Assembly: GCA_963663865.1 (NCBI GenBank)
Contig: OY760686.1
Span: 1,120,001 to 1,184,000, forward strand
Source: Spirochaetota bacterium
GTDB taxonomy: Bacteria; Spirochaetota; UBA4802; UBA5550
DNA length: 64,000 bases
Reading direction: 5' to 3'
The translations under genes were made by a program, and so were the position numbers. The notes under the pieces were generated by a model. That model was not told where the DNA came from. It ran no database searches and saw only the letters and a list, made by a program, of their open reading frames with translations. Below, piece by piece: positions 265 to 64,000 of the stretch. Every line of letters begins with the position of its first letter. Position 1 is the stretch's first letter.

Positions 265-1050
265 TTACGAACCGCCGGGATTTTTGGAGGATTTCCGGCG
301 TTGCGTGACTGCGAGGGTTATTATCCCCCCGCAAAAAAAGGCTATTGAGAAGAGCTGGCCGTCTGAGAGACCATGAAAGAAAATGCGGTAGTCGTTACGG
401 AAGAACTCAACTGTAAAGCGACCGGCCGAGTAGAAGATAGCGGAAAAGGCGAATAGCCGACCTGGAGCAAAAAGCTTTTTTTTGTAGAGTCCCGCGAAAA
501 GCATGCCGCCGACTATGAGATAGGCAGCGCTGATGAGCTGTGTCGGTATGACGGGCTGAAATGTAGCGGTTGCCGGCGCAATCGGGTCGGTGAATGTCAC
601 CCCGATGGGGCAGTCTGTGTGTACGCCGAAGCAGCAGCCTCCGAAAAAACAGCCGATGCGCCCTATCCCTATGCCGAGTAGGTACGACGGCGAAAGGAGG
701 TCCGCGAGAGGGGCGAGCTTGAGCTTCCAGCTTTTAACAAGAACAAGCGCGGCAGCGGTTCCCCCGAGAATTCCGCCCCAGCTTACGAGGGCGGGGTCAG
801 CTTTATCTATGCCGGTTTCGAGAATCTGCGGCAGGTTCATGAGGATTCCAGTGATATAGGCCCCTCCGAGGCCGCAGGCCCCTATAATCAGCAGGGAGTT
901 GGATACTATGTAGCGCTTGAACTCGGAGTGCCTTGAAAGGCGCAGAGCCAGAGAATAGGCGATAATAGATGCCGCCGCCACGAGTACGCCGTATGTGGCC
1001 ACCGTGAAATCTCTGCCGAATATTGATAAGTGAAAGAGTACGGGATGCAT
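265..1050 (-). CDS. lgt: Prolipoprotein diacylglyceryl transferase family protein
   Basis: MHPVLF start, TYG, GRIGCFFGGCCFG, PTQL and RFTVEFFR motifs; multi-TM. Confidence 0.85.
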   Translation of the reverse strand: MHPVLFHLSIFGRDFTVATYGVLVAAASIIAYSLALRLSRHSEFKRYIVSNSLLIIGACGLGGAYITGILMNLPQILETGIDKADPALVSWGGILGGTAAALVLVKSWKLKLAPLADLLSPSYLLGIGIGRIGCFFGGCCFGVHTDCPIGVTFTDPIAPATATFQPVIPTQLISAAYLIVGGMLFAGLYKKKLFAPGRLFAFSAIFYSAGRFTVEFFRNDYRIFFHGLSDGQLFSIAFFCGGIITLAVTQRRKSSKNPGGS

Positions 1051-58250: not shown

Positions 58251-58290
58251 TTTCTCACATACCATTTGAGGAGCCGGCAGATGAATATTA

Positions 58291-58333
58291 TTCAAGCCCT
58301 TTCAAGCCCTTTCAAGCCCTTTCAAGCCCTTTC
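58291..58333 (+). repeat. 10-bp tandem repeat TTCAAGCCCT x4 (+TTC)
   Basis: Four perfect copies starting 10 nt after the first base of ATG 58281. Confidence 0.97.
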
Positions 58334-58344
58334 TGATTATTCTT

Positions 58345-60537
58345 ATGTTATCATTTTTCATTATCTGTGCAGATAATATTTACGCGAACCACGCGGTCAA
58401 TCCCGACGGGTCTTTCGCCTATAGCATTCCAATTGAGGTCCCGCCCGGAACGAATGGAATAGCCCCTTCGCTTTCTCTTACATATAACTCAAACGCCGGC
58501 AACGGAATCTGCGGTGTCGGGTGGCAGCTTTCCGGACTGCCGTACATTACGCGCGACAGTACCTATCCTGTAAACTATGACGGGTTTGACCATTACACAG
58601 GGCCTGCCGGACGGCTGGTAAATATCGGCGGCAGCGTCTATCATTACGAGGATGAGAACTTCTGCAGGGTGGAGGCACATGGTTCTTATGGCGACGGCCC
58701 TGAGTACTGGGTAGAGACAAAGCCTGACGGGACGAAGTATTATTACGGATATAACAGCGGGGAATGCGACTTCGGTTCCAGCTATCGTTCAAAGATATCA
58801 ATGGTAAAAGGCAACGGATCTATAACTTCTAATACAAGGGTCTGGGCCCTGTCAAAGGTTCAGGATATTAACGGAAATTATTACAGCATCAAATATACCC
58901 AGTCAAATGGCCAGTTTTACCCTGAGGAAATTATTTATACCGGAAATGTCGTAACAGATTACGATGTCCGCCGGTCAGTTGAGTTCGATTACGAATCAAG
59001 GACAGACGATATTGCTGATTATTCATCCTCATCAAGAGTCGAGACATATAACAGATTGAAAAGCATAACGGTAAAGCTTGACGGAGATGAGGTCAGGAAA
59101 TACACTCTTTATTACTCAAGCACTTCATCCTATGGAGGGCTTAGAAGCCGTATTGCCAATGTTGCCGACAGCGGTCTGCCTGCGGGAGAAAATTTTTACA
59201 GCTTCAGCTGGACAAACTCGCCTGTATCTTACAACTCTTATTATGGAAATCTGAACTACGATACTGAGAATATTGGTAATTCCTATTTTGGCGATTATGA
59301 TGGTGACGGCAAGCTCGATTACATGATAAAAAACGGCGCCTCCCTGAAGGTTTTCAAATTTAACGGATCAGGCTGGGTTGATATCGGACAGTACTCGGGT
59401 GTCGGTTATGTTTATAATATGATGGTGGATGTGAACGGCGATAATAGATCAGATCAGATAATGCCAACTATGGATTTCTCTCAGGCAGATTACAATTTTC
59501 ATTTCTATCATACAATCAGGTATGCCGGTTCCGGGACACTGGAGAATGTCACTTTCGGCAATGACGCTTATACGGCAAGTGCTGTTACGGTTGATGCCAG
59601 AGTGCGCTACGTTGATGTCAACGGGGACGGGAAATGTGATATAGTGTATAGAGACGCGAATAATAACCACAAATTCCTGTATCGGACTGAACCCGGTCAG
59701 GGGAATTATCCTCAATCCGGGGGGAACTGGAGGCTGGGGACAAGCGTGCAATTCCCGAGCGGGAGCACGGATTCCGGATCTGATTATCCCTGTTTCACAT
59801 ACACTGACGCTACAGGTGATGGGAAAGCTGATATTGTATTTATAAAATACGATCCAGTATCGGGGACAGTTAAAGCAAGGGTTTGTGTAAACAAGGGCTC
59901 AGGATGGCAAGAGAGCTTTACAGCTTATTCATTTCCATCGAGTTATTCTACGATATCTGACAGATATACTGTTACAGACATGAACGGAGATGGACTGACG
60001 GATATTGTTTACAGAAATGATAACAATCAGCATTATATTTATTCAAGCACAGGGACTTCATTCAGGCAGAGCGCGTACACGGATATTTTGGGAACTGAAT
60101 CGGATTCAGCTTATTATAACTACTATGATATGAATGGCGACGGTTGGACGGACATTGTTGCCATGAATTCCTCTGGGAATTTTACAATAGCTCTGGCAAA
60201 GTCTGTCATAGGCAAAAACTGGACCACTGTAAGCAAATCTCTGGGGAACGGAGATAAGGAAAGGTACCGGTTTGGAGATTTCAACGGAGACGGCCGGGTT
60301 GATATTTTATATATCAACAAATCATCAGATCAATTAGTGCTCGGGACTTCATTTTGTAAGGCAATAGAGAAGATTTCTACAGCGACTCCGCCGAATCAGA
60401 CATTAACGAGTGTTGTTTATGAGCTTCCGACAACCATGACAGATAATATTGATGATTGGGTTGCTGACAGTGCTTTATATTTGTCGGGAGGGAGCGGTAA
60501 ATTTATGCCGGATAATACCCCGAGGAGCCTGATATAA
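58345..60537 (+). CDS. N-terminal part of the RHS toxin: SpvB/TcB-like domain plus FG-GAP/VCBS repeats
   Basis: GSFAYSIPIEVPPG..PSLSLTYNS..GNG..GVGW; seven DxxGDxxxD repeats. Confidence 0.88.
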   Translation: MLSFFIICADNIYANHAVNPDGSFAYSIPIEVPPGTNGIAPSLSLTYNSNAGNGICGVGWQLSGLPYITRDSTYPVNYDGFDHYTGPAGRLVNIGGSVYHYEDENFCRVEAHGSYGDGPEYWVETKPDGTKYYYGYNSGECDFGSSYRSKISMVKGNGSITSNTRVWALSKVQDINGNYYSIKYTQSNGQFYPEEIIYTGNVVTDYDVRRSVEFDYESRTDDIADYSSSSRVETYNRLKSITVKLDGDEVRKYTLYYSSTSSYGGLRSRIANVADSGLPAGENFYSFSWTNSPVSYNSYYGNLNYDTENIGNSYFGDYDGDGKLDYMIKNGASLKVFKFNGSGWVDIGQYSGVGYVYNMMVDVNGDNRSDQIMPTMDFSQADYNFHFYHTIRYAGSGTLENVTFGNDAYTASAVTVDARVRYVDVNGDGKCDIVYRDANNNHKFLYRTEPGQGNYPQSGGNWRLGTSVQFPSGSTDSGSDYPCFTYTDATGDGKADIVFIKYDPVSGTVKARVCVNKGSGWQESFTAYSFPSSYSTISDRYTVTDMNGDGLTDIVYRNDNNQHYIYSSTGTSFRQSAYTDILGTESDSAYYNYYDMNGDGWTDIVAMNSSGNFTIALAKSVIGKNWTTVSKSLGNGDKERYRFGDFNGDGRVDILYINKSSDQLVLGTSFCKAIEKISTATPPNQTLTSVVYELPTTMTDNIDDWVADSALYLSGGSGKFMPDNTPRSLI

Positions 60538-63500
60538 GCGTGTGTTATGAGCCGGATTATAGAAAAATAAGTTCAACAGTTTACTCATATCACAACGGAC
60601 TGATAAAGAAGGGATTGCCATATGAGAGGAAGAGTGTCGGATTTGAAAGAGTTGCGTCCAGAATGGGGGATGGAACCTATGCAAGGAATGATTATATTCA
60701 GACAGGGCTTTCGTTTCCCGGAAGAATGGCATACCATTATGAGTTTAGCTCCGAAAGACAGACAATTAGTCGAAAGTATTATACGTATCTGGAGGAGACG
60801 CCGTATTCCGGAGTGAAGTGGATTAAGACGGATTCTGAACTCAGTCATGACTATGAATCAGGAGTAGCTGTTTCAAATATTCTGAGAGAATATGGCTACG
60901 ACGAAGGCGATAGTGGTTGTTATGGTAACGTAACTTCAATAGCGATGAGTGTCAACGGTAATGATGGACTATATACGGAGATATCTTACAGTCCGAATCA
61001 ATCGGACTGGATAATTAACCGGGTAATATCGGTAAAGAAATGGGAGAACAGCAGCTGCGCCAATCTTATTTCATGGTCGAGCTTTGGTTACGATAATTAC
61101 GGATGGGGAGGAAATATCAAGACGAAGGCAGATTACCTGAAGGAAGGTACGAGCTGGAGGGCTATTGAAAGAAATTTTGGATATGATGATTACGGAAATA
61201 TAACATCGCTTTCTTTCCCAAATGGGACAGGAGGAAATTCCAGCGTCATAACGAACACATATGACGAGGACTATCATACCTTTCCTGTTGAAGAAATATC
61301 ATCTAATGACAGCGGCACAGAGCTCAAAACAATTACTACCTATGATTATGCTACTGGAAATAAAACATCAGTTACGGATGCCAATGGCAATACTACTGTT
61401 TATGAATATGACGATTATGGAAGAATTGTTGCTGAGAAGGCCCCTGGCGATGACTGGACAAAACAGTATTTATACTCCAAAGAATACTTCCCGGCGCCTT
61501 ACAGCGTTGTTGAGAGCCGCTTTAAAGACGATTCGTCTCTCGGTTATTCGTGGAAGCGTGAATACTATGACGGGCTTAAGCGCGTTGTAAAGACCGAGTC
61601 GAAGGGGTACAATGGACATGCGCTTGTTCAGGAGTTTAGCTATAATCTGCTCGGAAGGCTTGAGTCAAAGACAAACCAGTACCTGAGCGGATGCGATACT
61701 CCTCAGAAAACGGAATATGAATATGACAGCGCCGGAAGGCCGCAGAAGGCGGAAGCTCCGGATTCAACGGTCAAGAGAACGGAGTACAGCTACGCGGGAA
61801 ACCTCAAGGTGCTCAGGGAGATAGATGCTGACGGCAATGCCAGTTTGAGCAAGTATGACGCGCAGGGGAGGCTCAGGTACCAGGTTGATCCGTCGGGCGG
61901 AACGATAACATATAACTACGATGCCCTCGGCAGGCTGATATCGACTGTTGACGCGGGCGGGAATGTAACCTCAATTGCCTACGATACTCTCGGAAGGAAG
62001 ACGTCGATTACTGATCCGAACACGGGGACTACCTCGTTTACCTACTATGACAGCGGCGACGTAAAAACCCAGACGAACGCGCGAGGTGTAACGCTTACCT
62101 ATACCTACGACTCGCTTAACAGGATAACATCTGAGAGCTCTTCAGACGGGACTGTCAGGGCCGAGTATGTCTATGACAGCGGGACTACGAACAACCTCAA
62201 GGGCAGGCTTTACGGTGTAGATGACAATTCGGGGAGCACGGTGTTTTCATACGACGCGAGGGGTAATGTCACTCACACCCTGCGTTCAATAGACTCAGAC
62301 GGAGACGGGGTAGAGGACCGCGAATTCGCGGCATCATTTGCTTACGATTCGCAGAAGAGGCTTGTTGAAACGGCCTATCCTGACGCGAATCATCTTGTTG
62401 TGAAGAGGGTATACGGTGAGGCCGGGAACCTCCACGCGGTGACAGACGAGTCGGGCAACGCCTTTGTGCAGTACAGAAGGTCTGGGTCGACAGCGACTGC
62501 CATGAACGGCCATTCCATAAGCAGGATGACCGGAAACGGTGTTGAGACAGTAGTTGATTTTAATCCCGCCAACATGAGGCCCGTCACTCTTGAGACAAAG
62601 AGAGGGAATGATGTTCTTGAGCAGATGAACTATACGTTCAGGCCAGGGGGCAATATTCTTTCAATAACCGACGGATGTACCTCTGACGGAGATGACAGTG
62701 AGAGCTTTGTATATGATAACCTGGGCAGGCTTGTACAGGCATCGTCTGCTTCAAGCATGTATGGAACAAGAATTTATACATATGGTGCTCAGGGAAATAT
62801 TGAAACGGTTCAGTATACAAGCAATACGGGCCTTGTTTATTCATATGGCAACAGCAGTCATCCTCATGCAGTAAGTTCAATAATGTCGGCTCCGTATAAT
62901 ATGCCATATGGCTCATACAGCTATGACTCAACCGGCAACATGACTTACAGAAACGGCAAGACGCTTGTCTACGACGCGAAGAACCGTCTCATAGAGGTGA
63001 GAAGCGGCGCTAATCTGGTTGAAAGCTACGTCTACGACTTTACCGGAGCGAGGATAATCAAGAAGCTCGCTGACGGTTCGGCGGTGTTCTCCATAAACGG
63101 GATGCATGATCTGAAGACAACGCCCGGTTTCCCCGATCAGTACGTGAACTACATAACGGGGGCCGAGGGCGATCTTGCCGCGCAGATTGAGGGAGTCAAC
63201 ACGGCAGCCGGCGCGAGCGTCTACCCTGTTGTGAAGAACATGTACAACTGGAAGAGCCCGGCGGGCCTGATGCTAACGATAAACGCGTACGCGAGCGCCT
63301 GGCTGAACAATCCGGCGAACTACAGAAGGCTGGGTTACGCGCTCTTCGGTCTGCTTTTGGCGGCGTGTTCATTTGTGCTGTTCTACAGTGTGAGAAGGTA
63401 TAAAGCAGCAAGGAGCGCTAACGCGTGTTCCATGCTGCCATGGTCCTGGCTGAGGCACAGCGTACCTGGAATACTGCTTTTCTTCGTGTTCACATCATTC

Positions 63501-64000
63501 GGGCTTACCGGCTGCTTCGACGGGTCAGTAGACAACACGACCTTGAGCAACGTCAAGTACATGCACCCGAACCATGTCGGTTCAGTTGCAATGGTAACCG
63601 ACCACGAAGGAACGGTGGTGGCGCGCTACAAGTACGAGCCTTACGGGAAGGTACTGGCGCAGTCAACAGGCACCGGAATTTCAGACTACAAGTACACATC
63701 ACAAAAGTCGGACGCTACAGGCCTGTACTACTACAACGCGAGGTACTACGACCCTGACATCGGCAGGTTCATAACAGCTGATACCGAGATACCTGATGTA
63801 AAGAACTCTCAGGCCTTTAACAGGTACATGTACGTTGTTGGAAATCCGGTGAATTATGCTGATCCCAGCGGACACTGGGGATTCGGCTGGCTGAAGGATT
63901 TAGCTGGTAGTGCGTGGAGTTATACACAAAGTGGTCTTAAAACAGCCTATAAGTATACTATCGGTTGGATGTATGATAATGTAATAAAACCTACGGGGCA
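60516..64000 (+). CDS. C-terminal part of the RHS toxin: TcB-mid, YD repeats, RHS core and start of the toxin domain (open at the window end)
   Basis: Manual translation of about 60516-61810 and 63240-64000 in the same frame gave no stop: TVYSYHNG..GFERV, YDxxG(R/N) repeats, YMHPNHVGS, GLYYYNARYYDPDIGRF, NRYMYVVGNPVNYADPSGH. The part in between was only skimmed. Confidence 0.88.

Follow-up and report, generated by a model that had tools for sequence, protein, structure and literature searches.

How does an RHS toxin container come to carry two transmembrane (TM) helices, the second of them ending like a lipoprotein signal, just ahead of its core domain? The locus that raises this question lies at the end of a 64,000-nt stretch of spirochaete DNA, here called the window (G000:C1:1120001-1184000, G000:C1 being the contig that holds it). 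The frame concerned (60540..>64000; protein P0002, 1153 amino acids, or aa) carries an insert that follows the last RHS strand and precedes the RHS core. A sequence-only reading of the window had taken this helix pair for an internal lipoprotein signal that would lipidate the core and toxin. The comparisons reported here suggest a broader answer: the second helix, TM2, is best explained as a putative internal signal peptide that would be processed, because its end switches between a lipobox and an AxA site, because it is followed by lipoprotein-like tethers, and because there are stand-alone genes in which a signal peptide leads directly into an RHS core and toxin.

The insert and its place in the RHS container

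The insert and the domains on either side of it are as follows.

60540..63221, forward strand: RHS/YD-repeat shell (aa 1-894 of the second frame), from profile matches and the AlphaFold2 (AF2) model
63222..63329, forward strand: conserved pre-TM stretch with a MYNWK motif, predicted helix (aa 895-930); N903 is invariant in alignment A1, and the model has a helix at 907-923
63330..63392, forward strand: TM1, LGYALF...FYSV (aa 931-951), read as a stop-transfer helix
63393..63461, forward strand: basic loop (aa 952-974) with five K+R and no D+E, predicted to be cytoplasmic
63462..63515, forward strand: TM2, VPGILL...GLTGC (aa 975-992), signal-peptide-like h-region ending in the lipobox LTG-C, with the Cys codon at 63513-63515
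63516..63557, forward strand: 14-aa linker from the Cys to the RHS core
63558..63875, forward strand: RHS-associated core (aspartyl-protease plug) ending in DPSGH, from a profile match and conserved residues
63876..64000, forward strand: start of the C-terminal toxin, hydrophobic and glycine-zipper-like, continuing to ~64571; the Pfam glycine-zipper matches are all below curated cut-offs

All four landmarks named in the sequence-only reading, TM1, TM2 with its Cys, YMHPNHVGS (63558-63584) and DPSGH (63861-63875), lie where that reading had placed them, and its figure of about 100 aa for the insertion agrees with the ~97 extra residues that separate this protein from solved TccC2 (157 query residues against 60 in the chain). 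The turn that the insert replaces, between neighboring strands, takes ~8 residues in the RHS consensus versus ~125 here. In a Kyte-Doolittle scan over 19 residues, the two TM segments peak at 2.06 and 1.88 (protein mean, -0.55; standard deviation, 0.57), and the seven positions above 1.6 in the 1153-aa frame all fall inside TM1 or TM2. A Pfam and NCBIfam scan of the RHS frames in the window found no family covering the insert.

The end of TM2 has the layout of a lipoprotein signal, with R972 followed by 19 uncharged residues and then L-T-G-C. Its Cys is residue 992 of a broken frame and is thus not N-terminal, as the usual definition of a lipoprotein would have it. With regard to an internal start, a Met stands just before TM2 in the window (Met or Leu in relatives), and the nearest AAGGAG is 16 nt upstream.

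The RHS/YD repeats were confirmed by PF05593 (134.9 bits) and TIGR01643 (103.3 bits), and the RHS-associated core by TIGR03696 (aa 1032-1112; 73.8 bits, cut-off 32.5). In alignment A3, core residues D1081, D1108, P1109, and G1111 each reach 90% conservation or more, and the core of the window protein matches those of TccC, YenC2, and SGS proteins. The AF2 model of P0002, built from a 40-row alignment (predicted TM-score [pTM], 0.76), is nearest to TcdB2-TccC3 (6suq; Foldseek E 2.4e-45, TMq 0.70; Z 30-31 over ~940 residues). Across RHS, Tc, and teneurin shells it scores Z 28-35, the best being 9ifo_A (VIA; Z 35.1, root mean square deviation 2.9 Å over 701 residues). By this model, the RHS frame has a cocoon fold. 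Structure prediction, a check proposed along with the original reading, thus served the shell well (predicted local distance difference test [pLDDT] score, 81.3) and the insert poorly (pLDDT 33-75).

Conservation of the hairpin and of its signal-like end

Relatives of the insert were sought by a HMMER search with its 115 aa against 1.84 billion representatives, which gave 11 matches at E<=0.001. Nine were fetched; the other two, P0011 and P0013, gave many short repeated matches. One of the nine, P0004, is a near-identical (96%) orphan fragment from the same genome, and the eight from other sources share 31-45% identity over the insert. Every fetched relative has TM1, a basic loop, a TM2 ending in F-G-[LFI]-[TP]-G-C, and then the core; all nine show the TM2-G-C end, and the alignment covers at least query residues 17-113 in each but P0010. 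A word-indexed search with the insert yielded a single match among 74 candidates (P0003, 95% identity to the insert), and the relatives described here came from HMMER.

Alignment A1 combines the window with seven relatives, P0004 and P0009 being excluded as near-duplicates, and its rows are 41-55% identical to the window over the whole aligned stretch. The Cys is invariant in 8/8 rows, as are the preceding Gly, one Pro, and one Phe of TM2, while TM1 is conserved in hydrophobicity only. The sequence-only reading had staked its lipidation claim on conservation of the Cys and lipobox in homologs; the Cys is kept throughout this alignment and recurs in the distant RHS proteins described below. That reading also supposed an N-terminal Sec signal that exports the shell. 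Homologs P0006, P0010, and P0014 indeed start with a clear Sec signal peptide, which is followed by an SpvB domain, and a signal-peptide-like start was found in 6/6 of the module-bearing loci with complete N-termini (module denoting the TM1-loop-TM2 unit before the core).

The host genome itself holds two further RHS genes with the module. An intact paralog of the window gene (G000:C1:771521-777934) is one 2137-aa frame in which the TM2 Cys is residue 1803. The third gene (G000:C1:180919-187284, reverse strand) is divergent; its 2121-aa frame encodes a signal peptide, SpvB, shell, module, and core, the module consisting of TM1, a KRRFKGL..KK loop, a TM2 ending in FLTAC, and a 55-aa acidic/Gly/Thr/Pro tether that leads into the core. 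Together with matches from other Spirochaetota and from Leptospiraceae, these genes confirm the suspicion that similar inserts occur in other spirochaete RHS proteins.

To follow the module farther afield, one genome per species was scanned with A1, giving 80 loci, most of which match in the core only. A hidden Markov model of the core located 99 cores in 76 of these loci, 65 of them with at least 100 aa of upstream frame, and 47 of the 65 have no hydrophobic segment within 130 aa before the core. Such a segment precedes 22 of the 99 cores. In 16 of the 22 (13 loci) it ends in Cys; these belong to Spirochaetota, Leptospiraceae, a delta-proteobacterium, and Myxococcaceae (L027). The Cys is mostly followed by a Gly/Ser/Thr/Pro-rich linker of 31-57 residues, which is 13-14 residues in the closest relatives, L009 and L010. 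A further three have two helices, lack the Cys, and end in ..ASVAQA|A, ..LQVYA|G, and ..EAHA|A. Two are genes of the candidate phyla radiation (CPR) in which an N-terminal signal peptide stands directly before core and toxin. The last, L022, was flagged by the hydropathy filter on a single marginal segment and was set aside as a false positive.

The Cys-less form is also that of a family of nine Verrucomicrobia/Planctomycetes proteins (40-100% identity), which have TM1, a basic loop, and a TM2 that lacks Cys and ends in [VA]-x-A|A in 8/9, ~8 residues before the core; 6/9 have an N-terminal signal peptide. Of the 120 RHS proteins collected through overall similarity or through the insert, 9 have the module and 111 do not. 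The positive charge of the loop, noted early on in the window (five K+R, no D+E), holds generally: in the 20 rows with both helices delimited, the loop has 1-7 K+R and 0-2 D+E and is net positive in 20/20. The uncharged run before the Cys measures 13-26 residues across module rows. As a separate observation, the tethers of L028, L035, L039, L064, L074, and P0016 (Leptospiraceae, related) have in common a motif of the form ~G-x-P-[PI]-W..L followed by [DN]-T-P-S-V.

The CPR genes (L082:109-1164 and L080:1053-2417, from Peribacteria and Saccharibacteria metagenome-assembled genomes) consist of signal peptide, RHS core, and toxin, with no shell visible beside them on their short contigs. We conclude from their arrangement that the core-toxin unit can be exported alone.

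The history of the module was examined on a FastTree phylogeny of 161 RHS rows, computed from 330 aa of shell and core with the insert excluded. The module changes state 4 times on this tree versus a mean of 26 in 200 shuffles. Because related rows share labels, the tree shows few apparent origins of the module and says nothing on its function. One clade of 18 rows (support 64), made up of spirochaete and Myxococcota/delta rows, has the module throughout, and the rows from the Planctomycetes-Verrucomicrobia-Chlamydiae (PVC) group form a separate group.

We counted lipoprotein-like patterns (one positive residue, then 6-20 uncharged ones, then a lipobox) in every frame of the host genome that is 150 aa or longer. 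The pattern matches 139 distinct Cys. The first 60 aa of a frame account for 100 of them, and 24 lie deeper than residue 150 (0.039 per 1000 aa); at frame starts the pattern is enriched ~15-fold. Five of the 24 deep matches lie in pre-core RHS inserts: both helices of the window copy and of the paralog account for four, and TM2 of the third gene for one. The toxin domain of the paralog contains a sixth. Lipoprotein-signal matches in RHS inserts exceed chance. The Cys of TM1 (LAAC), which also fits the pattern, was rejected as a lipidation site: it is missing in P0005, P0012, and P0014 and would face the cytoplasm. The 100 N-terminal matches most commonly have F/L at -3, A/T/S at -2, and A/G at -1, within residues that the pattern itself restricts; LTGC is thus an ordinary lipobox for this host. 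The genome encodes LspA (106.9 bits, above the cut-off).

A model for assembly and the explanations that compete with it

Taken together, these features suggest how the container might be assembled. The N-terminal signal peptide would export the shell until TM1 stops transfer, the positive loop would be retained in the cytoplasm, and TM2 would set export going again for the RHS core and toxin. Shell and plug would then both be periplasmic, and the cocoon could close. With an N-terminal Sec signal, a meeting of shell and plug needs an even number of membrane crossings, and TM1-loop-TM2 fits this need. The most likely outcome at TM2 would then be lipidation of the Cys by Lgt, with LspA cutting ahead of it, leaving a shell fragment held in the membrane by the hairpin and a lipid-anchored core-toxin fragment docked into the shell. 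A cut in the insert need presumably not open the shell, since the insert takes the place of a short turn. Membrane insertion, cleavage, lipidation, and the final site of the complex are steps that we infer from sequence.

Our view of this scheme differs between its parts. For the family of the window, we give roughly an even chance to cleavage and lipidation at the TM2 Cys, with the insert acting as a conserved topogenic cassette of a Sec-exported container. The internal lipoprotein signal of the sequence-only reading is upheld insofar as the lipobox is conserved; the signal-peptidase-I-type site of the PVC sister family favors the broader term internal signal peptide, and a TM2 that ends in a lipobox or in AxA according to clade would be an internal signal peptide of either class. 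More tentatively, and at somewhat less than an even chance, the module may be a conserved device by which signal peptidase II (in spirochaetes and Myxococcota/deltaproteobacteria) or signal peptidase I (in Verrucomicrobia/Planctomycetes) splits an RHS container into a membrane-held shell and an often lipidated plug-toxin.

Several observations weigh against processing at TM2. Its conservation exceeds the level usual for signal peptides, and the uncharged run before the Cys, 17-25 residues in the family of the window, would suffice for a TM helix that is stable and stays uncut. The -1 residue is T, N, or H at several Leptospiraceae sites, residues that a classical lipobox would exclude. A full-text search found no natural internal lipoprotein signal in bacteria, and Lgt/LspA may refuse such a substrate. 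The two Lgt-like matches in the genome (111.3 and 81.1 bits) are both under the curated cut-off of 118.9. The insert helices of the AF2 model (907-923, 925-960, and 970-987) are of low pLDDT, and the model gives them no confident place inside or outside the shell. The window copy is broken upstream at two places, and the module there may be inactive. Finally, an anchor in the cytoplasmic membrane of a diderm does not by itself account for delivery to another cell.

Part of this evidence would suit a plain, uncleaved anchor, in which the hairpin would fasten the cocoon by its closed end to the cytoplasmic membrane, and the conserved Cys and small residues that finish TM2 would help in packing or in a turn. 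Such an anchor would be expected to have hydrophobic runs of TM length and a well-conserved TM2, as found in the close family; a positive loop suits any helical hairpin, and we found no precedent for an internal LspA site in the literature. It leaves unexplained, however, why one clade has a lipobox and another a -3/-1 AxA site, why flexible Gly/Ser/Thr/Pro tethers like those of lipoproteins follow the Cys, and why stand-alone core-toxin genes have N-terminal signal peptides at the equivalent place. On balance we consider an uncleaved anchor less likely than processing.

It is less probable still that the helices are shielded in or on a soluble secreted cocoon and insert into a target membrane, after the manner of SGS1 and the prePAAR effectors. 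The mosquito protein SGS1 houses predicted TM helices inside an Rhs/YD shell (PMC9935623), many toxins in the present family are hydrophobic themselves, and AF2 gives the insert no confident position. However, the module is N-terminal to the core and so would not be freed with the toxin at DPSGH, and SecYEG would normally pass 21-residue hydrophobic helices laterally into the membrane. Shielding also offers no role for the charge bias or for signal-peptidase-type ends. Nor is a link between module and hydrophobic toxin significant (6/14 versus 13/59; odds ratio, 2.65; Fisher p=0.17, after dropping duplicates, toxins of <60 aa, and rows without a full-length core match). The simplest dismissal, that the insert is functionless hydrophobic junk in a decaying pseudogene, might be drawn from the two breaks in the window copy and from a locus with orphan fragments and an insertion sequence (IS)-like pair. 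That it is junk is barely credible, as the same module stands in the intact 2137-aa paralog frame and the insert is conserved at 31-45% identity in other organisms and across phyla, which contradicts it.

Processing at an internal signal peptide, the explanation that we prefer, can also be set against known RHS systems. The TcB-TcC cocoons TcdB2-TccC3 and YenB-YenC2 have the same SpvB N-terminus, FG-GAP propeller, RHS shell, aspartyl-protease core, and variable toxin. Unlike them, the spirochaete paralog is a single chain with an N-terminal Sec signal and has the two-helix insert of ~97 residues ahead of the core, and here immunity-like genes and orphan cassettes lie downstream, as in interbacterial polymorphic toxins. 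The Sec and type VI secretion system (T6SS) Rhs toxins WapA, RhsA, and Tse15 likewise combine an RHS shell, core, and polymorphic toxin with downstream immunity genes and orphan cassettes.

The spirochaete protein differs from T6SS Rhs effectors in that a Pfam scan of the window RHS frames found no PAAR/VgrG-type domain and in that TssC (PF05943) is absent from the host genome (98% complete), the same profile being found in an Escherichia coli control. The known TM domains of those effectors are N-terminal (prePAAR; 10.1101/2020.10.28.356139), whereas the spirochaete helices stand directly before the core. For the Tc route, the TcA profile VRP1 (PF03538) has no match in the host genome and none in the 14 control genomes either, so that this control is silent.

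Anchored shells have been predicted before. Bacterial teneurin-like YD-shell toxin containers have N-terminal Sec or signal peptidase II signals and are predicted to be lipid anchored in Gram-negative bacteria (PMC13018210). Here, in contrast, the lipoprotein signal would lie ~1800 residues into the protein, after a stop-transfer helix, and would lipidate the core-toxin fragment only. The core of SGS1 matches that of the window protein (E 1.2e-12); its helices are C-terminal cargo past the aspartyl-protease site, inside the shell, unlike the spirochaete helices (aa 931-991), which precede the core (aa 1007-1112), have signal-peptide features, and so do not share the SGS1 arrangement. Myxobacterial SitA proteins are described in PMC5562445 as polymorphic lipoprotein toxins delivered by outer-membrane exchange. 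Their likeness to the present family is one of analogy only, SitA having an N-terminal lipobox and no RHS shell; module-bearing RHS genes do occur in Myxococcaceae (L027). Outside bacteria, viral polyproteins combine a stop-transfer helix with a subsequent internal signal peptide, which signal peptidase cuts. Their order resembles that of TM1 and TM2, and they differ in being systems of the eukaryotic endoplasmic reticulum.

The full-text literature searched, most subscription journals being outside its scope, yielded no account of TM helices or of a signal peptide ahead of an RHS core, and wording for an internal lipobox or an internal lipoprotein signal, looked up as exact phrases, was absent from it. 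The accessible part of a polymorphic-toxin survey (PMC3482391) makes no mention of TM helices in that position. These sources, as far as they are accessible, suggest that a conserved pre-core hairpin with a signal-peptide-like TM2 is undescribed; shells with N-terminal signal peptidase II signals, N-terminal TM domains of T6SS effectors, and lipoprotein toxins are already in print. RHS, Tc, and teneurin shells so far described are soluble and are delivered by T6SS, TcA, or plain secretion. If our reading is true, a conserved membrane hairpin and signal-peptidase site would add an assembly or anchoring step for RHS toxins, the substrate rules of Lgt and LspA would widen to internal sites, and the module would be the first case of an internal lipoprotein signal peptide occurring naturally in bacteria. 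RHS toxins could then be assembled, anchored, and perhaps handed over in the cell envelope independently of T6SS and TcA, which bears on how spirochaetes, Leptospira, myxobacteria, and PVC bacteria make use of Sec-exported RHS toxins that have no known injector.

Gene copies, toxins, and neighborhood

The host genome is one contig of 3.16 Mb and has three FlaA homologs above the cut-off, versus 0/14 control genomes; the organism is a spirochaete, a diderm with a periplasm. The weaker of its Lgt-like matches lies in the window itself (289-1020, reverse strand). Upstream of the shell, the window RHS gene comprises the following.

58281..58333, forward strand: ATG after GAGGAG, then four copies of the 10-bp tandem repeat AAGCCCTTTC (58294-58333), in the part coding for the signal peptide
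58345..60537, forward strand: N-terminal fragment of the broken RHS gene, with SpvB and an FG-GAP propeller (TcB-like; PF03534, 51.9 bits; PF13517, 83.5 bits)
60524..60525, forward strand: junction at which 73 bp of the paralog are absent and the frame changes, from comparison with the intact paralog

Because 73 bp of the intact paralog are absent at 60524/60525, the frame of the N-terminal part (58345..60537) is not that of the RHS part (60540 onward). Joined, the two frames are by their domain order a predicted fused TcB/TcC-like protein. The second break is at the repeat: with four AAGCCCTTTC copies, the ATG led by a Shine-Dalgarno sequence (58281) is out of frame with the RHS open reading frame (ORF), and with six copies in the intact paralog (G000:C1:771615-771674) the ATG is in frame. 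The copy number of the repeat sets whether this ATG reads in frame, and the repeat could be a slipped-strand on/off switch. The 73 bp and the 20-bp repeat difference add up to 93 bp, which is divisible by three; even so, the sequence from the repeat to the 73-bp junction is out of frame with the upstream ATG.

The toxins of the family include hydrophobic, glycine-zipper-like domains (below cut-offs) and, in P0012, a Tlde1 domain above the cut-off, and the third RHS gene of the host ends in a glycine-rich hydrophobic toxin. The ORF after the toxin at the window locus starts, judged by eye, like an exported lipoprotein. These toxin types and the exported immunity-like ORFs suggest a possible action in the envelope of neighboring bacteria. 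An all-against-all BLASTP comparison of the ORFs around the three RHS genes and nine module loci revealed no shared partner gene, the matches being RHS fragments and the IS-like pair only.

Past the end of the window lies an array of orphan core/toxin cassettes (G000:C1:1186263-1193427; loci L003-L006). The TM insert survives in some of them, and one retains it in full and stops within the core. The IS-like ORF pair (G000:C1:1190399-1192422, reverse strand) is similar to ORFs of locus L085.

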